DNA from: Methanomassiliicoccales archaeon
Lineage (GTDB): Archaea; Thermoplasmatota; Thermoplasmata; Methanomassiliicoccales; JACIVX01
Length of the DNA: 64,000 nt
NCBI GenBank assembly: GCA_050010535.1
Contig: JBEKKT010000007.1
Location: 6,052 to 70,051 of the forward strand
Direction of reading: 5' to 3'
Positions 3,720 to 56,449 of this stretch are shown one piece after another. The stretch's first letter is position 1. The number at the start of each line of letters is the position of its first letter. Below the pieces are notes generated by a model. It saw nothing but the letters and a program-made list of their open reading frames with translations. It was not told where the DNA came from and made no database searches. The translations under genes were made by a program, and so were the position numbers.

Positions 3720-3804
3720 GCGCTAGCCTAGGGTGTGCGACTTCCCGGATTAGCAAATTTGGCGAACGTGGCTCTAGCAGCGACCATGAGACTCTATGAC
3801 AAGG

Positions 3805-3817
3805 TTTAAGTATAATA
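3805..3817 (+). promoter_or_regulatory. TATA-box-like element upstream of the ilv operon
   Basis: TTTAAGTATAATA. Its centre lies about 25 nt upstream of ATG 3837, the spacing expected for an archaeal TSS at or near that ATG. Confidence 0.4.
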
Positions 3818-3836
3818 CTCCCAATACAAGGGAGCG

Positions 3837-3917
3837 ATGGAGCAAACTGCGCTGACTGCTGGTTCGGGTTGTGTGTCGGTCAGCGAGCAGCTTCTGGTCG
3901 TTTTGGTCGTTAGATAG
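3837..3917 (+). promoter_or_regulatory. Candidate leader peptide uORF (26 codons, MEQTALTAGSGCVSVSEQLLVVLVVR) ahead of ilvB
   Basis: The ATG sits at the predicted TSS, so the transcript would be leaderless. The last 8 sense codons are LLVVLVVR and include a 9-nt tandem duplication TGGTCGTT(T/A). It lies 56 nt upstream of the BCAA biosynthesis operon. Confidence 0.35.
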
Positions 3918-3948
3918 GGGAGACCTTCTTCTTCGGAGGGGACTCCCC
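3917..3948 (+). promoter_or_regulatory. GC-rich stem-loop immediately after the uORF stop
   Basis: GGGGAG (3917-3922) pairs with CTCCCC (3943-3948), with further CC/GG pairs inside. The first G is the last base of the uORF TAG. Confidence 0.4.
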
Positions 3949-3972
3949 TGTGATTGTGTGTGAGGAATGTGA

Positions 3973-5646
3973 ATGAGAGGTTCTGAAGTTCTCATCAATG
4001 TCCTGCGCGACGAGGGCGTGAATGTCGTCTTCGGTTATCCAGGCGGAGCCATGCTCCCCCTATACGATGACCTGAGGGATTCCGACTTGAGGCATGTTCT
4101 CGTCCGGCACGAGCAGTGCGCCGCCCACATGGCCGATGGATTCGCCCGCGTGCTGAAGAGGCCGGGAGTTTGCATGGCTACTTCCGGCGCGGGAGCGACG
4201 AATCTCGTGACGGGGATCGCAACCGCATTCCTTGATTCATCCCCGGTCATCGCTCTTACCGGGCAGGTTCCGACGGGTATTATCGGCAACGACGCCTTCC
4301 AGGAGGCGGACATCTTCAGTCTCATGATCCCGATAACGAAGCATAACTTCCGGATCATGAACGCGGCGAACCTTTCGAACGATCTGAGGAGCGCCTTCTC
4401 GATAGCCGCGAGCGGGCGATACGGACCTGTGCAAGTGGACCTCCCGAGGGACATACTAACTTGTGATATCTCCTCCCCAATCGAGCCAAGGAAGGTCTCG
4501 ACGAACGGGACGAGGGAGGATCTCACTGAGTTACCTCAAGCGATTCAGCTCCTTGAGTCGGCAGAGCGGCCGCTCATCCTCGTCGGAGGAGGGGCGATGT
4601 GGTCCGGATGCGGTCCGGACGTGATCGCACTGGCGGAGATGCTCGCTTCTCCTGTCGTGACGACACTAATGGGAAAGAGCACAGTGCCAGAGAATCACCC
4701 GTTGGTACTTGGTATGGTGGGAATGCATGGGAGAAGGGTTGCGAACTACGCGCTCGAGGAATGCGACGTGCTTCTTGCTGTCGGTACAAGGTTCAGCGAT
4801 AGGATGATCGGGGATCCGTCCTCTTGCCGAACGAGGGTCATCCACATCGACATTGACACCGGTGAGCTTGGAAAGAACGTGAGGCCGACAGTCGCCCTCA
4901 GCGGGGACGCCGGGCTGGTGATCAGGGCTATCTCGTCATCGATCCGTGCGAGAAGAAACGATGGGAAGTGGACGGAGAGGATGGGAATGCTAAAGAAGGA
5001 ATGCGCCTGCAACCTCGACCTCGGGGACAACCCGATCAAGCCGCAGAAGGTCATTTACGAGCTATCAAGACTGCTTCCCGAAGATGCCATAGTGACGACA
5101 GAAGTTGGCCAGTGTCAGATGTTCGCCGCTCACTTCTTCGAGGCCCGAGGGAATAGGCAGTTCATAACGCCGGGAGGGCTTGGCACGATGGGATTCGGAC
5201 TGCCCGCCGCTATAGGTGCGAAGATCGCCGCCCCGCAGAGGTCGGTCGTCGATGTGGCCGGGGACGGGAGTCTTCTGATGGTCTGCCAGGAGCTTGCTAC
5301 TGCGGTGGAGGAGAATATTCCTGTCTTCGTCTGCCTTCTGAACAACGGGAGGTTGGGCATGATCAAGCAGCTCCAGAACATGTTCTATGGAGGCAGGATG
5401 GCTGCGATGGATCTGGGGTCCTCGCCGGACTTCGTGAAGCTTGCAGAGGCGTTCGGTGTCAGGGCCGCGAGGGTCAAGGACCCGAAGGACCTCGAGAGCG
5501 TCATTGAGGAAGGGGTCGCTTCGGACCGTCCATTCCTCGCTGACATATGGATTGACAGGGAGGAAGAGGTTCTCCCGGTGACGCTAAGGGCCGAAAATGA
5601 GACAAGGGTAATCGCAGGGAGTTGTGCTTGGAAGGGAGTGTGCTAG
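3973..5646 (+). CDS. ilvB: Acetolactate synthase large subunit (ThDP-dependent)
   Basis: 557 aa. N-terminus MRGSEVLINVLRDEGVNVVFGYPGGA, ThDP motif GDGSLLM...NNG, followed directly by the small subunit gene. Confidence 0.93.
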   Translation: MRGSEVLINVLRDEGVNVVFGYPGGAMLPLYDDLRDSDLRHVLVRHEQCAAHMADGFARVLKRPGVCMATSGAGATNLVTGIATAFLDSSPVIALTGQVPTGIIGNDAFQEADIFSLMIPITKHNFRIMNAANLSNDLRSAFSIAASGRYGPVQVDLPRDILTCDISSPIEPRKVSTNGTREDLTELPQAIQLLESAERPLILVGGGAMWSGCGPDVIALAEMLASPVVTTLMGKSTVPENHPLVLGMVGMHGRRVANYALEECDVLLAVGTRFSDRMIGDPSSCRTRVIHIDIDTGELGKNVRPTVALSGDAGLVIRAISSSIRARRNDGKWTERMGMLKKECACNLDLGDNPIKPQKVIYELSRLLPEDAIVTTEVGQCQMFAAHFFEARGNRQFITPGGLGTMGFGLPAAIGAKIAAPQRSVVDVAGDGSLLMVCQELATAVEENIPVFVCLLNNGRLGMIKQLQNMFYGGRMAAMDLGSSPDFVKLAEAFGVRAARVKDPKDLESVIEEGVASDRPFLADIWIDREEEVLPVTLRAENETRVIAGSCAWKGVC

Positions 5647-5647
5647 A

Positions 5648-6010
5648 ATGGAAGTGATATCGATGATAGTGAACGACGAGTTCGGCGTTATGCAGAGAGT
5701 GATGGGCGAGTTCACGCGGAAGAAGATCAACGTCGAGACGATCGTCGTCGGGAAATGCGAGATCGTAGGAAAAGCCAGGGTCGTACTCAGCGTGAAAGAT
5801 CGGAAGCAGGCTGAGCAGGCAGTGGAGCGACTCGAGCGCCTTCAGGACGTCGTTCAGGTCGAGATCGTCAACGAGACGAGGCACGAGGGGTATGCGCTGG
5901 TGGCGAACTCGTTCGGGAAGGCCAGATTGATAGGAAGCCTCGAGGAGGTCGGGGGTCTCATCGACACCACCAAGCCCGATCGCTTCATCAAGACTGTGAA
6001 CGCGCTTTGA
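5648..6010 (+). CDS. ilvN: Acetolactate synthase small (regulatory, ACT-domain) subunit
   Basis: ATG 5648 lies 2 nt after the ilvB TAG. ACT-like fold signature (VISMIVNDEFGVMQRVMGEFTRKKINVETI). Confidence 0.8.
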   Translation: MEVISMIVNDEFGVMQRVMGEFTRKKINVETIVVGKCEIVGKARVVLSVKDRKQAEQAVERLERLQDVVQVEIVNETRHEGYALVANSFGKARLIGSLEEVGGLIDTTKPDRFIKTVNAL

Positions 6011-6090
6011 CGTCGTCCACGAGGCTTAATTCTTTAAAGGTTCAGACTCGTATCCGGTACTGCTTGACGAGGTTTAGAGAGGGTCATTGA

Positions 6091-7008
6091 ATGGAGCCGA
6101 CCGAGAAAATCTGGATGGATGGAAAGATAGTCGATTGGGACAAGGCGAACGTGCACATATTGACGCATGGTCTTCACTACGGCGGTGGCGTGTTCGAGGG
6201 CATCCGGTTGTATAGCACGAGCAAGGGCAGGGCCGTCTTCCGCCTGAAGGACCACATGATTCGGTTCTTCGACTCCGCCAAAGTCATCGAGCTCAAGATA
6301 CCTTACAGCCTGGACGAGCTGTGCAAGGCATCGAAGGATGTTGTGAAAGCGAACCGCTCGAAGGTCGACTACATCCGCCCGATTGCTTACTACGGATCCG
6401 GCGCCGTTGGCCTGAACCCAATCAACCTGCCGACGAAGGTCGCAATCGCATGCGTCTACATGGGCCCCTATCTGGGCGAGGAGCAGCAGAGGTTCGGTGC
6501 GAGGCTGATCACCTCCTCCTGGGAGAAGCCATCGAATCGCGCCGCGGCCGTGAACGCGAAGATATGCGGGAACTACATCAACTCCGTGCTGGCGAGGCTG
6601 GAGGCCGTCCACAAGGGAGCGGACGAGGCGCTGATGCTGGACGCCAAAGGGAACGTGGCAGAGGGAACTGGGGAGAACATATTCATGGTCAGGAACGGGA
6701 AGATTTCTACTCCCGGCATGGCCTCCGGGATACTCGGGGGGATAACGCGGGACTCCGTGATGCAATTGGCGCCGGAGCTCGGATACGAGGTCACGGAGAG
6801 AGACATAACGAGGTCCGAGCTGTACGTTGCGGACGAGGTCTTCATGACCGGGACCGCCGCAGAGGTCCTGCCAATAAGCTCTATTGATGACCGCAACATC
6901 GGTGGGGGAAAGCCGGGTCCGATAACATTGAAGCTCGCGAAAGGGTTCTCGAGCACGACCATGGGGAAGAACAAGAAGTTCATGCACTGGCTGGACTTCT
7001 TGAACTGA
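6091..7008 (+). CDS. ilvE: Branched-chain amino-acid aminotransferase (class IV PLP)
   Basis: 305 aa. IWMDGKIVDWDKANVHILTHGLHYGGGVFEGIR, and EGTGENIF...GITR motifs of IlvE. Confidence 0.93.
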   Translation: MEPTEKIWMDGKIVDWDKANVHILTHGLHYGGGVFEGIRLYSTSKGRAVFRLKDHMIRFFDSAKVIELKIPYSLDELCKASKDVVKANRSKVDYIRPIAYYGSGAVGLNPINLPTKVAIACVYMGPYLGEEQQRFGARLITSSWEKPSNRAAAVNAKICGNYINSVLARLEAVHKGADEALMLDAKGNVAEGTGENIFMVRNGKISTPGMASGILGGITRDSVMQLAPELGYEVTERDITRSELYVADEVFMTGTAAEVLPISSIDDRNIGGGKPGPITLKLAKGFSSTTMGKNKKFMHWLDFLN

Positions 7009-7102
7009 ACTTTCCATCATCCTGCGAGGAGTTGGAGAAAGAACCGATCCTGATCATGTACCACTCCTCCTCCCTCGATAAGGGATAGAACGTGCCGTCC
7101 AC

Positions 7103-52008: not shown

Positions 52009-52755
52009 ATGAAGATCATCGCCATAATGACCGACAATTTCAGATTCTTCTATCAGATCGTCCAAGATCTGAAGGAGAAGGACGAACCCTTCATCTCCCT
52101 GGGCTTTGGGGACCACGTCCCTCCTGCGGTCGGAGTGATCATCACCACCGAGGCCGAGAAGACCAGGATAACATTCCCTACCGTCGTCGCTGACGACGAT
52201 CCCTATCAGGCCGTCGATGTCGCGTCGGCGATATTGAAGGGCGGTAAGGATTTTGAGAACCTGAAGATAGGTATCGACCCTGGAAGCAGACCAGGATTGG
52301 CTGTCCTAGGTGACGGTAAGGTGTTGTTCACCGACGCCGTTCGTTCCCCGGAACAGGTTGCGGACACCATTGATCACGTCCTTGTCTGTTTCACTCACGC
52401 CAACTCTGTTGTCAGAATTGGCCACGGCGACAGAACGAACCGAAATCGTATTATCAAGGCGATCTGGGACAAGGTGGACGAGGTTGAGATCGTTGACGAG
52501 ACGAACACGACTACCAGAAGCGACACCCCTGACGTCGATGCGGCGCTCAGCATCGCGACTTCATCGGGGCATAGACTTTCTTCCCCGCCCGAGATCTCGC
52601 CCACCGCGGGCGAAATCCGCGACATACAAAGGCTGAGCAGGATCGAGAGCGGGGGCAGGGTGACAATATCATCTCTGCTGGCCAAAGCAGTGGCGCGGGG
52701 TGAGCTGACGCTGGATGGGGCTATAAGGGCACAGAGCAAGAAGGTCAGACGTTGA
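52009..52755 (+). CDS. Hypothetical protein with RuvX/YqgF-like RNase H-fold signature
   Basis: IGIDPGSRPGLAVLGDGKVLF, VEIVDETNTT and PDVDAALSIA resemble the YqgF catalytic motifs (GiDpG, vDErlTT, vDa.AA). The N-terminal 85 aa are unassigned. Confidence 0.45.
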   Translation: MKIIAIMTDNFRFFYQIVQDLKEKDEPFISLGFGDHVPPAVGVIITTEAEKTRITFPTVVADDDPYQAVDVASAILKGGKDFENLKIGIDPGSRPGLAVLGDGKVLFTDAVRSPEQVADTIDHVLVCFTHANSVVRIGHGDRTNRNRIIKAIWDKVDEVEIVDETNTTTRSDTPDVDAALSIATSSGHRLSSPPEISPTAGEIRDIQRLSRIESGGRVTISSLLAKAVARGELTLDGAIRAQSKKVRR

Positions 52756-54271
52756 CCCTTGAGAAGGAAGGAATCTTAGCAAGGAGCATCCCTTCTATAG
52801 ACACTGAATCCGTCCTCCTTGCCATGTCGGCAGCCCGTTCGAGCTTAAGCTCGTTTTCTGCATAGATTGTGTATAGCGTCTCGCCCATCTCGACCTGGTG
52901 CCCCCTCTTCTTGTTCAGCAAAATCCCTGCACCTTTATCCTTCGGAGCACCGGCAAGTCTAGCTATCCGAACCAGGTCCTTGTTGTTGATCGCAGAAACG
53001 TATCCAGATTTCCTGGCGGCAACATCGTAAGTGTACTGACCTACCTTTATATCCTTTGACTTGACGTTCGGGTCACCACCCTGGGCCTGTACGATTTCCT
53101 TGAACTTCTTCAGGGCCCTCCCGGACTCAAGGATTTCCTTGGCCCTCTCGACACCATTGCCTATTCCGCCCAGTTCGAGGAGCATGCCCGCTAATCCGCA
53201 GGACTTCTCGATGACACTTCCTGGGTACTTCTTCTCCCCTTCCAGTATGCTGATAGCCTCTCTAGCCTCCAGAGACGGTCCGATTGCCCTACCTACAGGC
53301 TGTCCTCCGTAGGTGACAGCGCACTCGACCTTTATTCCGAGCGCTTCGCCCAGGTCGATGAAGTCGCGGGCGTACGCCCTCGCCTCATCCATATTCTTGA
53401 CCTTGGTCCCCTCTCCCATCGGTATGTCTATGACCACGTAATCGGCGCCGGCCGCCTTCTTCTTCGACATGACGGATGCGAGCAGCTGGGCGTGAGGATC
53501 GATGCCAAGCGGATACTCCACTCTGATTATCAGATCGTCCGCCGGTGCCAAGTTCATGGATCCTCCCCAAGCCAACGTCCCTCCCACCTTCTCGGCTATC
53601 CTTTTCAGATCGGACGAGCTGAACTCGACAGGGGCGAACACCTCCACGATGTCTGCGGTGCCTCCGGCACTGCTGATCGCCCTCGAAGACGTCTTTGGTA
53701 TGAGAAATCCAGCGGCTGCGACGATCGGGACGATAATCAGCGTCACCTTGTTACCTGGTACGCCGCCGACGCTGTGGAAATCGAAGACTGGGGAGCGATC
53801 GAATTCGATGGTCTCCCCACTCTCCACCATAGCGATCGTGAGATCCACAGTCTCGCGGAGGTTCATGCCATTGATGTGGAGCGCGGTCACGTAAGCCGAC
53901 ATCTCGATGTTGGACAGATTCCTCGCCGCGATGTCGCCCACTAGATTCCTTATCTCCTCTGTGGAGAGCTCCCCTCCGTCCATCTTCTTCTTTATGCAGT
54001 CGACGGACTCCGGCCTGCCAGTACAAAGTACCTCGACCTCTTCCCCGGATTCCGCATGGAGGGTTGTGAAGGTCTTCCCGAGTATCCCGATCTCGCCTGG
54101 GTTCACGACGGAATCGGTCGTGTGAACGATGGCCGTGATGGTGTCCTTGGTCTCGTGCTTGATCTTGACTCTGTCTTGCTCTCTGACGCCGAGTTCCATG
54201 CAGTCCTCCTCGTGGAGGACTGCAGTCAGTTCTCCGGTGTCCATGTCGATGTATCTCGCTTTCAGTTTCAT
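52745..54271 (-). CDS. deoA: AMP phosphorylase (thymidine phosphorylase family)
   Basis: MKLKARYIDMDTGE N-terminal domain typical of archaeal AMPpase, plus glycosyltransferase family-3 core motifs (HSVGGVPGNK, SSRAISSAGGTAD). ATGA overlap with the rbcL stop. GTG 54283 is an alternative start. Confidence 0.9.
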   Translation of the reverse strand: MKLKARYIDMDTGELTAVLHEEDCMELGVREQDRVKIKHETKDTITAIVHTTDSVVNPGEIGILGKTFTTLHAESGEEVEVLCTGRPESVDCIKKKMDGGELSTEEIRNLVGDIAARNLSNIEMSAYVTALHINGMNLRETVDLTIAMVESGETIEFDRSPVFDFHSVGGVPGNKVTLIIVPIVAAAGFLIPKTSSRAISSAGGTADIVEVFAPVEFSSSDLKRIAEKVGGTLAWGGSMNLAPADDLIIRVEYPLGIDPHAQLLASVMSKKKAAGADYVVIDIPMGEGTKVKNMDEARAYARDFIDLGEALGIKVECAVTYGGQPVGRAIGPSLEAREAISILEGEKKYPGSVIEKSCGLAGMLLELGGIGNGVERAKEILESGRALKKFKEIVQAQGGDPNVKSKDIKVGQYTYDVAARKSGYVSAINNKDLVRIARLAGAPKDKGAGILLNKKRGHQVEMGETLYTIYAENELKLERAADMARRTDSVSIEGMLLAKIPSFSRVNV

Positions 54272-55524
54272 CCCGATCCCCACCTTTCGAGAGCGATTCC
54301 GAGCTCTCTGTGATCCTTCGCGTAGACGTCCAGTGGAGTCCCTTGGAAAGCCGCGTCTACCGCCTGGGACATCGCAGCCGCGCCCGCCCGGATGCCTTCC
54401 GGGTGTCCTGCGACGCCTCCCCCTGCCTGTATCTGGATGTTGTTTCCGGCGATCTCGATCAGCTTGCGGACAAGACTCGGATGAACTCCGCCGGAGCAGA
54501 CGGAGATCATCGGCCTGTATCTGACCTCATTGTCTTTGCAAGCCCGCTGCGTCTCCAGATCCTCCTTCGGGTCACCCTTCATCTTGCCGACTCCGAATGT
54601 CCCGACGTGCAAAGCATCTCCTCCGCACATGCGGATGAGCTTGGCCATGGGTCGCATCGCTATTCCGTGATCCTTGTTCCTCGTTATTGCCGCATGCATC
54701 GTCCTGTGGACGTGTATCGGTACTTTGATCGATGGATCCTCCGCCAGGGCCTGGACGGCCGAAAAACCGCAGGTCAGGACGTCGACCATAATCTCGGTCG
54801 CACCGAGTTTCTGGGCCTTCTCAGCCACCTCGACAATCTTGTCCCCTCGAGTCGAGACGTTGATCGCGTGTATCATGACGTGACCGGACTCGCTTTTCAA
54901 CCTGTCGAGCGCCTCAGCAATTGCCACGACCCGATTCTCCAGCGGGCAGAACTTCTGGTCGACCAGGGTCTCGTCGTCCTTGCCGTTCGTGAGTCCGCCC
55001 ATGCCCGCTTCGAAGACGTACGCCGCCGTTTCCTTTGGAGACAGTCCAATCTTCGGCTTGACTATCGTCCCGACTAGCGGTTTCTCCGGTCTCTTCAAGA
55101 TGTTCCTGATTCCCTGTATCCCGAACTTAGGTCCTTTGAACGCGTCAAGGATCGAACGAGGGAACTCGACGTCCTCGAGGCGTATGCCCTTCAGGATCTC
55201 CAGCCCAAAAAGGTTGCCCGCGATGATGCTCAGTATCTGCGGAACGCCCCCGACTTCGAGGCTGAAATCCTCGACAGGAAAGGCAACGGTCACAATGTTG
55301 CCCTTGATGTCGATGACCTTCCCGCTCAATCTGGAGAAGATGTCCTTATGAAGCGTCGTCAGTCCCGTCCAAGTGCCCGTCGATTGCTCGGTGGCTATCG
55401 CCGCCGCGGCCCTCCTCATGGGAAGGTCGGTCTTCACCTTGTACTTGCAGATGACGTGCGCATCAAGGTCTATCTTCTCGCCGAGATGCAGATACTTCCC
55501 AGAGTATTCCATGTGAATCACCAA
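54268..55524 (-). CDS. rbcL: RuBisCO large subunit, form III
   Basis: Catalytic residues are in place: KPKIGLS, GKDDE (carbamylated Lys context), HVHRTMHAA, LHVGT, GKMKGD, CSGGVHP, QAGGGVAGHP. The start may be ATG 55512. Confidence 0.9.
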   Translation of the reverse strand: MVIHMEYSGKYLHLGEKIDLDAHVICKYKVKTDLPMRRAAAAIATEQSTGTWTGLTTLHKDIFSRLSGKVIDIKGNIVTVAFPVEDFSLEVGGVPQILSIIAGNLFGLEILKGIRLEDVEFPRSILDAFKGPKFGIQGIRNILKRPEKPLVGTIVKPKIGLSPKETAAYVFEAGMGGLTNGKDDETLVDQKFCPLENRVVAIAEALDRLKSESGHVMIHAINVSTRGDKIVEVAEKAQKLGATEIMVDVLTCGFSAVQALAEDPSIKVPIHVHRTMHAAITRNKDHGIAMRPMAKLIRMCGGDALHVGTFGVGKMKGDPKEDLETQRACKDNEVRYRPMISVCSGGVHPSLVRKLIEIAGNNIQIQAGGGVAGHPEGIRAGAAAMSQAVDAAFQGTPLDVYAKDHRELGIALERWGSG

Positions 55525-55525
55525 A

Positions 55526-56449
55526 TCATCTGTTGAGAACCGTTTCCGATCCCAGTTCCTTCATTATAATGTCGTAAGCTGAGTAGGGCGAGATGACCCC
55601 GACCTCCGTGACTATCGAATCGACGTAGTCGGCTGGCGTAGCGTCGAACACGGGATTGAGTATCCTCACGTTCGTGGAAATCTCGCCCTCCCTGACTATT
55701 TCACCGGGGTCTCTCTCCTCTATCTCTACGAGCTCACCGTAGACGGTCTTCGGAGAGAACTTGAAGGTCTCGGCGCAGACGATGAACGGCACTCTGGCTT
55801 CATGGGCCGCGAGGGCGATCTGAGACGTACCGATCTTGTTTATTACGGCGCCATTCGACGCGATCGTGTCCGCGCCGACGTACACCAGATCGATGTCCTT
55901 CATTGCCCACCGGACAGCACTGTCGATGATGAGTGTAGTGGGAATGGCCTCTTTCGCAAGTTCATTGACCGTCAGCAGGCCCTGCCTCCACGGTCTTGAC
56001 TCGGTGGCATAGACCTCGATGTTCTTCCCTTCCGAGAAGGCCGTCTTCATGACGCTTAGGGCCGCCTTACTATTGCAATGCGTCAGGATGCGCTCGCCTC
56101 CTTTGATGCGCTGCGAGCCAATCCTTCCGATCGTGTTCACCGCTTCCTTCGACCGAGCGACGAAGCAATCAGCATTCGAGGCGACGAGGCTCTTGAGCTC
56201 CTTCACGCTCTTGGCGTCCTTGGCTCCTCGTGACACGGCCTGCACAGCATTCCAGAGGGATATCGCCGTGGGCCTCGTCGAAAGGAGGAGGCCCTTGCTT
56301 TCTTCGAGCTCCTTCTTGAATCGATCGAGATCCTTCCCGCTGAACTCCTGCGCCATTTCCTTCAGCGCACCAGCAGCTGCCCTGGCTATTTCGCCGGCAC
56401 CCCGGATCTCCATCGTCTTGATCGACTGCGCCACTTTCCTCAAGCTCAT
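55526..56449 (-). CDS. e2b2: Ribose-1,5-bisphosphate isomerase (eIF-2B alpha/beta/delta-like family)
   Basis: 307 aa. IRGAGEIARAAA, THCNS, VGADTIASNGAVINKIGT. Immediately upstream of rbcL. Confidence 0.85.
   Translation of the reverse strand: MSLRKVAQSIKTMEIRGAGEIARAAAGALKEMAQEFSGKDLDRFKKELEESKGLLLSTRPTAISLWNAVQAVSRGAKDAKSVKELKSLVASNADCFVARSKEAVNTIGRIGSQRIKGGERILTHCNSKAALSVMKTAFSEGKNIEVYATESRPWRQGLLTVNELAKEAIPTTLIIDSAVRWAMKDIDLVYVGADTIASNGAVINKIGTSQIALAAHEARVPFIVCAETFKFSPKTVYGELVEIEERDPGEIVREGEISTNVRILNPVFDATPADYVDSIVTEVGVISPYSAYDIIMKELGSETVLNR

Follow-up and report, generated by a model that had tools for sequence, protein, structure and literature searches.

The ilvB leader locus

This work concerns a 64,000-nucleotide stretch of DNA (hereafter the window) from a Methanomassiliicoccales archaeon (assembly GCA_050010535.1, contig JBEKKT010000007.1, positions 6,052 to 70,051), in which an ilvB-ilvN-ilvE operon is preceded by a short upstream open reading frame (uORF) that ends in a run of leucine and valine codons and abuts a hairpin. 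An earlier note on this DNA had asked whether the arrangement is a bacterial-style attenuator leader ahead of an operon that makes exactly these amino acids, and we followed this up by comparative and computational analysis. The TATA-like box, the open reading frame (ORF), the codon run, and the hairpin were all found at the coordinates given there. A Shine-Dalgarno (SD) sequence precedes ilvB, and ilvB, ilvN, and ilvE were identified by family matches and gene calls. The features, in order, are the following.

3805..3812, plus strand: TATA-box-like octamer TTTAAGTA, putative promoter of the leader-ilvB transcript, with equivalent octamers in relatives
3818..3834, no strand assigned: inverted repeat CTCCC-N7-GGGAG, 3' of the TATA box and 5' of the leader ATG, outside the leader proper
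3837..3917, plus strand: uORF for the predicted leader peptide MEQTALTAGSGCVSVSEQLLVVLVVR* (asterisk, stop codon), 26 codons, ATG start, TAG stop at 3915-3917
3847..3890, plus strand: stem 1 within the uORF, CTGC/CTGAC (3847-3856) with GTCAG/GCAG (3879-3890), just 5' of the Leu/Val run
3891..3911, plus strand: proposed regulatory run LLVVLVV (CTT CTG GTC GTT TTG GTC GTT), then Arg AGA at 3912-3914
3915..3950, plus strand: hairpin 2, its foot overlapping the TAG, core arms GGGGAG 3917-3922 and CTCCCC 3943-3948
3952..3956, plus strand: conserved pentamer GATTG past the hairpin (S-A-T-Y-G/T in the family), at about 3 nt from the stem
3962..3975, plus strand: ilvB SD GAGGA (3962-3966) and start ATG (3973-3975), a block that is invariant in the window clade
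3973-5646, plus strand: ilvB (NCBIfam TIGR00118, 689 bits)
5648-6010, plus strand: ilvN, short form (ACT/acolac_sm, below cut-off)
6091-7008, plus strand: ilvE (NCBIfam TIGR01122, 389 bits)
3973..7008, plus strand: the ilvB-ilvN-ilvE operon as the proposed regulatory target, from gene calls and Pfam and NCBIfam matches

The octamer TTTAAGTA is separated by 24 nt from the A of ATG 3837, and the uORF is probably leaderless because its start codon stands at the distance from the TATA box at which an archaeal transcription start is expected. A separate promoter for ilvB finds no room in the 24 nt between the end of hairpin 2 and ATG 3973. The predicted peptide contains four Leu and six Val among its 26 residues, in agreement with the ten that had been counted before, and the LLVVLVV run directly precedes the Arg codon as described.

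The run had been attributed in part to a tandem duplication, and the comparison with relatives bears this out. The 9-nt units CTGGTCGTT (3894-3902) and TTGGTCGTT (3903-3911) are identical at eight of nine positions, and the relatives L006-L010 are shorter by exactly 9 nt at this site, which supports an in-frame duplication in the window clade; Tandem Repeats Finder did not flag the repeat because the units are too short. The 9-nt gain lengthens VLVV to LLVVLVV, and in the same clade the ancestral TGA became an Arg codon (AGA, CGT, or CGG), the stop now being the next in-frame TAG. Both changes keep the reading frame, and the uORF now ends 55 nt before the ilvB start. The GC-rich hairpin 2 overlaps the TAG and is two-tiered, with an inner stem at 3924-3929/3935-3940. 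Its predicted free energy is -21.4 kcal/mol, calculated on the 42 nt that follow the stop, with z = -2.5 against dinucleotide shuffles.

Conservation of the leader among archaeal ilvB loci

The sample comprised 80 archaeal ilvB loci, one genome per species, and six metagenome loci fetched by DNA pattern. All loci with a leader come from metagenome assemblies and are related by ancestry, so that locus counts overstate independence. The architecture was found in the window and in 62 related Thermoplasmatota loci, namely 56 genome loci, which are labelled Methanomassiliicoccales, Thermoplasmata, or Thermoplasmatota or group with those, and all six metagenome loci. The common order is a TATA box and, about 23 nt further on, the in-frame ATG or GTG of an ORF of 20-28 codons that ends in an Ile/Leu/Val run and a stop codon, a hairpin about 5 nt past the last branched-chain codon, and then the SD and start codon of ilvB, the run sitting 44-65 nt before the ilvB start. 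L060 and L077 were the only Methanomassiliicoccales-labelled loci examined without this architecture, and the upstream sequence of L028 was too short to judge. Outside the phylum, no ilvB locus in the panel (Methanocellales, ANME-1, Halobacteria, Altiarchaeota, and other lineages) has such a leader, and a relaxed frame test on 12 loci from outside lineages returned marginal, dissimilar frames in only two. The alignment of relatives' ilvB upstream regions that the earlier note had suggested therefore gave a clear answer, with uORF, run, and hairpin in 62 loci. Its caution that a 26-codon ORF can arise by chance loses its force on the same count, and a whole-window scan for a TATA box, short ORF, amino-acid run, and hairpin found no second comparable element.

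The conserved features point to a translated ORF. In 53 of the 55 scored loci, the TATA octamer is followed at 20-28 nt (mode 23) by an in-frame ATG or GTG, which is almost always the sole such codon in that interval. The leader frame is open in all 51 distinct leaders, compared with 7 and 20 for the other two frames. Across the same leaders, the fraction of Ile, Leu, and Val is 0.66 in the last nine codons and 0.30 in the codons before them, and in IlvB it is 0.25. The counts for the four Val codons are 41, 39, 38, and 34, and this even use indicates selection on the identity of the amino acid and not on the nucleotides. Within the window clade, changes in the run are synonymous only. The N-terminal two-thirds of the leader varies freely even where IlvB is 88-95% identical, and the branched-chain composition of the C-terminal run is the only conserved coding feature. 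The open frame, the Ile/Leu/Val-rich tail, and the in-frame indels therefore argue for a translated sensor and against a conserved peptide or a purely structural RNA. None of the leaders is called as a gene in the annotation, which gives the family a bearing on how such genomes are annotated.

The hairpin is likewise a constant of the family. Its mean z-score is -2.6, and 42 of 57 leader loci fall below -2, compared with a mean of -0.16 and one of 20 below -2 in control loci (18 from outside lineages, together with L060 and L077). It is present in every clade with arms that are unrelated in sequence (GGGGAG/CUCCCC, GAGGCAUCC/GGGUGUCCUC, GGGCGCGCGAC/GUGUUGUGAUGUCC, GGAUCGCC/GGCGGUCC). RNAalifold on the MAFFT alignment of all clades returned no structure because the hairpin arms were misaligned, and per-sequence z-scores and a covariance-model alignment were used instead. 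In the covariance-model alignment of group D, 87% of cells are paired, compared with 32-66% in slid controls, and none of 500 shuffles attained the observed score. In 32 of 57 loci, 5 nt separate the last branched-chain codon from the first paired base, and in most of the others RNAfold had added weak pairs at the hairpin foot. This spacing is kept with either of two spacers, a sense codon plus two nucleotides of the stop codon or the stop codon plus two nucleotides.

Stem 1 appears in the minimum-free-energy fold and in the RNAalifold consensus of the window clade. Its equivalent in other subgroups pairs early codons with the branched-chain run, with compensatory changes at 5 of 12 pairs. The post-hairpin pentamer S-A-T-Y-G/T is visible in a left-justified listing of post-hairpin sequences and in the alignments A2 and A3.

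Leader specificity in paralogous operons

The leader goes with ilvB and not with its neighbours, as it precedes both ilvB-ilvN-ilvE (window clade, L021, L022) and ilvB-ilvN-ilvC (other groups), and the upstream genes differ between the two operons. Three genomes hold both operons (the same-genome pairs L005/L031, L009/L023, and L010/L030, each from one metagenome-assembled genome, MAG). In these genomes, the ilvBN-ilvE copy carries leaders with only Leu and Val in the run (QLLVVLVVR*, SVQVLVV*), and the ilvBN-ilvC copy carries Val/Ile or Ile-only leaders (AVVIIIS*, GIIIR*). The lack of Ile codons in the window leader, which the earlier note had listed as a caveat, is thus explained by Ile-rich leaders on the paralogous ilvB-ilvN-ilvC operon of the same genomes.

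One subgroup has a tandem pair of ilvB genes (L027, L025, L029, L034, L045), each copy with its own TATA box, leaderless GTG uORF, and hairpin. The leader of the second copy in L027 (4298-4462) consists of a TATA box, the GTG uORF VSGITCETGVLILRVSVVMTVI*, the hairpin GAGGCAUCC...GGGUGUCCUC, GATGATTGC, an SD, and ATG, and its counterparts in L025, L029, L034, and L045 lie at about 4330-4460. The covariance model R1 recovered these second copies, which were absent from its seed alignment.

The ilvB start itself is often a codon other than ATG, many group D loci included: most Methanomassiliicoccus-type loci use TTG or GTG, and L031 (2501) uses CTG. In L021 (2501) and L022 (1221), homology starts at ATC and ATT, respectively, 8-9 nt past GGAGG, and in L021 the first canonical start lies 33 codons further downstream; the sequences suggest non-canonical initiation of ilvB in these two loci.

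Proposed sensing by ribosome stalling

From the sequence and its conservation, we consider it likely that the element is a cis-acting leader peptide that senses charged tRNA-Leu and tRNA-Val by ribosome stalling and in this way sets the expression of ilvB-ilvN-ilvE. Transcription would start at or beside ATG 3837, as the spacing from the TATA box suggests, and a ribosome would translate the 26-codon leader. When charged tRNA-Leu or tRNA-Val is scarce, the ribosome would be expected to stall in the LLVVLVV run. With the last branched-chain codon in the A site, the hairpin foot lies at about +12 from the first P-site base, which is roughly the ribosome's mRNA entrance. A ribosome stalled on any codon of the run would therefore have its entrance set against the intact hairpin, an arrangement whose geometry follows from the spacing and whose function is our proposal. 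With only about 5 nt between the end of the run and the hairpin foot, a stalled ribosome should leave the hairpin intact, and a ribosome that gets through would have to start unwinding it in order to reach the stop codon. The stalled state would correspond to high ilvB expression and the read-through leader to low expression.

The read-out is the less secure part of this proposal. We tentatively favour a co-transcriptional, factor-dependent (FttA/aCPSF1-type) read-through decision, a suggestion that is made by analogy and that we regard as possible and distinctly short of probable. A stalled ribosome together with the abutting hairpin would present no single-stranded leader RNA to FttA/aCPSF1 until the ilvB SD had emerged and been loaded, and a terminating, departing ribosome would expose the leader, with premature termination or cleavage in the 55-nt spacer as the outcome. 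Transcription-translation coupling and FttA-linked polarity are both present in archaea (PMC7858274, PMC12548453). In its broader form, the proposal is that archaea have leader-peptide amino-acid sensing, in Methanomassiliicoccales and other Thermoplasmata and specific to the paralogue, and that a ribosome stalled against a constitutive hairpin next to the stop codon controls FttA/aCPSF1-type termination or RNA processing before ilvB is reached; on balance, we lean towards this statement.

Several points weigh against the explanation as a whole. The evidence is comparative and computational, with the transcription start, the translation of the uORF, and the regulation inferred from it, and the loci that were counted are not independent. 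Folding models, which ignore kinetics, proteins, and temperature, contain no structure that changes with ribosome position; they predict the hairpin to be constitutive, and the accessibility of the ilvB SD does not respond to the modelled ribosome positions. Archaea are not known to terminate transcription at hairpins (PMC8716108), and no U-tract follows the hairpin of the window leader. Simple coupling models also predict the wrong regulatory sign, because the loss of coupling to RNA polymerase during a stall would promote termination. The shielding from FttA is argued wholly by analogy, and no factor-binding motif was identified.

Mechanisms rejected and alternative explanations

A number of specific mechanisms were examined in silico and rejected. 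A bacterial intrinsic terminator would require a U-tract behind the hairpin, and the window has none: the post-hairpin tail CTGTGATTGTGTG contains no U-tract, as the earlier note had already cautioned, and the terminator scan of the plus strand is empty. An archaeal intrinsic terminator, in which a U-tract of 4-7 residues forms the RNA 3' end and no hairpin is needed (PMC8716108), is absent as well, as there is no run of four or more T between 3937 and 3972. In the family, a T5 run after the hairpin occurs only in the AT-rich loci L053 and L054. Runs of at least five T or five A are generally scarce, with 32 in the 64-kb window and no clustering at gene ends; the terminators of this lineage may therefore be atypical and not of the oligo-U type of model archaea. 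Antiterminator pairing, in which early codons would pair with the hairpin arms upon a stall, was not supported by ribosome masks at A-site positions -9 to -4, which left the hairpin pair probability at 0.84-0.88, against 0.88 in the free RNA. A region 2 would also find no space, since the run reaches up to the hairpin. The earlier note's statement that no alternative anti-terminator pairing was obvious agrees with this steadiness.

Two further mechanisms concern the junction with ilvB. A minimal start-stop ATG TGA (3967-3972) stands directly before the ilvB ATG, and the base after that ATG is A, which makes an overlapping ATGA. A second mini-uORF or start-stop coupled to ilvB was rejected, as the upstream frames are not conserved, and the NTGA overlap at the ilvB start arises because residue 2 is Lys or Arg. 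A hungry-codon -1 frameshift, stimulated by the hairpin and continuing to a UGA overlapping the ilvB AUG, was rejected as a family-wide mechanism, as the gap modulo 3 is 0, 1, and 2 in 26, 18, and 13 loci, respectively, and L089 does not conform. Such a frameshift is still conceivable in the window clade. All eight genome loci of that clade have an open -1 frame between the run of the uORF and the UGA at ilvB, a feature that is not conserved in other clades. The element does not belong to a known RNA family either, since no Rfam family matched the window at the gathering threshold. A permissive search of 3780-4000 gave best E-values of 4.7 or higher, to unrelated families, and at E = 1 no family was found there, the ilvB-associated motifs included.

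Among the broader alternatives, the one that survives best is translational attenuation of the kind found in ermC, cat, and the mycobacterial poly-Cys leaderless ORFs, in which the position of the ribosome remodels the RNA and exposes the SD or start codon of ilvB only on a stall. In a bistable variant, the 5' arm of the hairpin captures the SD once a terminating ribosome has opened the hairpin; the corresponding model lets the 3' arm pair with the post-hairpin motif and the 5' arm with the SD. That ilvB has its own SD and that many relatives use a weak TTG, GTG, or CTG start would suit such control, as would the observation that SD accessibility never rises when the hairpin is forbidden. Across the family, the fall in accessibility on forbidding the hairpin (0.124) equals that of shuffled tails (0.115, p = 0.72), the window SD is 0.65 unpaired in both states, and ribosome footprints at six positions, modelled on the stop codon and with the A site 1-7 codons before it, leave the mean accessibility of the ilvB SD at 0.43-0.47 with flat per-position profiles. 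Equilibrium SD masking and family-wide bistable capture were both rejected on these results. In the Methanomassiliicoccus subgroup (L035, L041, L042, L044, L046, L048, L049), an alternative fold pairs the hairpin's 5' arm CAUCC with the SD GGAUG. Its energy is close to that of the hairpin fold, relative to which it is more favourable than in 21-25 of 25 shuffled tails, and the models leave SD capture as a possibility limited to this subgroup. As an account of the whole family, we regard translational attenuation as unlikely.

Stabilisation or processing of the mRNA is, in our judgement, slightly less likely still. A stalled ribosome might block a 5'-to-3' exonuclease, or a stall-induced cut might leave a protective 5' stem, and in either case the ilvB message would live longer during starvation. 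This idea gives the right regulatory sign and needs no alternative RNA structure. The 5' end is no more than about 75 nt from the stall site, and the last sensing codon is 5 nt from the hairpin. Archaea of this lineage use beta-CASP 5'-to-3' ribonucleases, and the ermC mRNA, which a stalled ribosome stabilises against RNase J1, offers a model. However, a plain exonuclease roadblock needs neither the tight spacing of run and hairpin nor the hairpin itself, no cleavage motif was identified, and the idea is drawn wholly by analogy.

The two remaining alternatives dispense with ribosome-mediated control of ilvB, and we consider both highly improbable, to the same degree. Under the first, the G/U-rich run and the hairpin would form a non-translated RNA or DNA element bound by a protein, a tRNA, or a metabolite (in the manner of a riboswitch, a T-box, or an Lrp-type operator), and the ORF would have no role of its own. 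Strong nucleotide conservation of the run and its flanks within subgroups, for example GTAGTGGTAGTNTTGATTAGGTAG and AGCGTGCAG, accords with this, and the inverted repeat near the promoter suggests extra protein-based control. Across subgroups, however, third codon positions are free and Ile/Leu/Val identity is retained, all 51 leaders have an open frame whose start codon stands at the presumed transcription start, indels are in-frame, and no Rfam family matches. Under the second, the ORF would encode a functional hydrophobic micropeptide, or be a small gene in its own right that ends in the hairpin, and it would play no part in ilvB regulation; small hydrophobic peptides are common and the position and length (20-28 codons) of the ORF are conserved, but the peptide outside its tail composition is unconserved even among genomes with 88-95% identity, the ORF is tied to ilvB in two paralogue families despite differing upstream neighbours, its composition tracks the paralogue, and the 24 nt past the hairpin are too short for a separate ilvB promoter.

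Relation to known leader peptides

Leader-peptide attenuation is the textbook case of control through coupled transcription and translation and is regarded as a bacterial invention. The E. coli leaders ivbL (of ilvBN) and ilvL (of ilvGMEDA) share with the archaeal family a short ORF directly 5' of acetohydroxyacid synthase genes, a run of end-product codons, a hairpin between the leader and the first gene, and paralogous synthase operons with differing leaders (Val/Leu and Ile/Val/Leu in E. coli). The division of labour between ivbL and ilvL is mirrored by the archaeal split between paralogues. The archaeal uORF differs in being leaderless where the E. coli ones are SD-led, and its run stands at the extreme C-terminus, 5 nt from the hairpin. 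The hairpin is single and constitutive, with no U-tract and no 2:3 antiterminator, and the RNA polymerase of archaea, to which the host belongs, is not known to respond to hairpin terminators (PMC8716108). The proposal of a bacterial-style attenuator is thus supported for the sensing logic, with a conserved leader, run, and hairpin, and fails for the read-out, because there is no U-tract, no antiterminator, and the hairpin is left intact.

Other bacterial systems come close in single respects. The ilvB-II (Corynebacterium ilvBNC), ilvB-OMG, and ilvB motifs have a conserved branched-chain-rich uORF before ilvB and were recognised by comparative genomics (PMC10272879). By its title, the paper of Morbach et al. 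(2000), cited in PMC13158618, reports that the Corynebacterium leader peptide is synthesised with no ribosome-binding site, and the ilvBNC leader is described as a three-hairpin attenuator (PMC11857589). The ilvB-II leader is therefore like the archaeal one in having a leaderless branched-chain uORF before ilvB and unlike it in being bacterial and in using three hairpins. The poly-Cys small ORFs (sORFs) of mycobacteria (the Cys 'ribulon') are leaderless, form the first cistron of a biosynthetic operon, and use ribosome pausing as the signal (bioRxiv 10.1101/834739). They resemble the archaeal leaders as leaderless sensory sORFs with a cognate codon run, but their read-out depends on a duplex over the downstream ribosome-binding site, which a stalled ribosome keeps from forming, whereas the archaeal family has no family-wide SD-sequestering structure.

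The logic of the favoured read-out would be closer to tnaC and Rho than to a terminator/antiterminator switch. At tnaC, a ribosome arrested at the end of the leader governs the access of a termination factor without a terminator/antiterminator pair. The differences are that tnaC arrest is induced by tryptophan at the stop codon and that the factor is Rho, whereas a role of FttA/aCPSF1 at the archaeal leader would be pure inference by analogy.

No amino-acid-sensing leader peptide or attenuator from archaea was found among 8 million full-text papers or in Rfam, which agrees with the earlier note's view that such control has not been established there. The related archaeal mentions were limited to unexplored uORFs in long 5' untranslated regions (UTRs) of Haloferax (PMC4983044) and a generic statement (PMC10219788). 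The sensing principle is thus already known; what is new is the domain of life and the leaderless architecture with a C-terminal run docked on a constitutive hairpin, and the read-out is probably new as well. By the defining features of read-out in the models, the element fits neither the transcriptional nor the translational attenuator families, with the Methanomassiliicoccus subgroup as a possible exception to the latter. The candidate is concrete, widely conserved, and paralogue-specific, and its lineage includes the cultured genus Methanomassiliicoccus, so that ribosome-mediated attenuation without hairpin terminators in archaea should be directly testable. If the proposal is true, it would extend the known principles of gene regulation in archaea, serve as a natural probe of how ribosome, RNA polymerase, and FttA interact, and mean that unannotated leaderless sORFs of archaeal genomes can act as sensors.

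Other features of the locus and the window

The host is an archaeon of the Methanomassiliicoccales, and its closest genome match is an uncultured Methanomassiliicoccaceae MAG with 95% IlvB identity. The window also codes for aIF2-gamma, aIF5B, the thermosome, PAN, and a type III RuBisCO cluster; no further amino-acid biosynthesis operon was found in the window. The upstream neighbour of the operon is an amino-acid ABC transporter, and the downstream neighbour is a pyruvate/2-ketoisovalerate ferredoxin oxidoreductase. The ilvN product has 120 residues and a single ACT domain (45-47 bits, under the NCBIfam cut-offs), and the same short form lies 3' of ilvB in all related loci examined.

The inverted repeat at 3818-3834 was found both by a stem scan (3817-3835) and in the fold, and it is partly kept in the close relatives L004-L006 and L084. 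It is a possible operator for a transcription factor that would act besides the leader. Words of this repeat reappear in the arms of hairpin 2. A long imperfect stem-loop of about 60 nt (3721-3782), with no T-tract, lies between the stop codon of the ABC-transporter ATPase gene and the leader promoter, and it may mark the 3' end of the upstream operon or act as an insulator for it.

On the minus strand, antisense to ilvE, a 328-codon ORF (6034-7020) matches no family and is almost certainly a shadow ORF of that GC-rich gene. Further along the minus strand (52745-56449), genes for an AMP phosphorylase-like protein, type III RuBisCO, and a ribose-1,5-bisphosphate isomerase-like protein (IF-2B family) make up the archaeal AMP salvage pathway.

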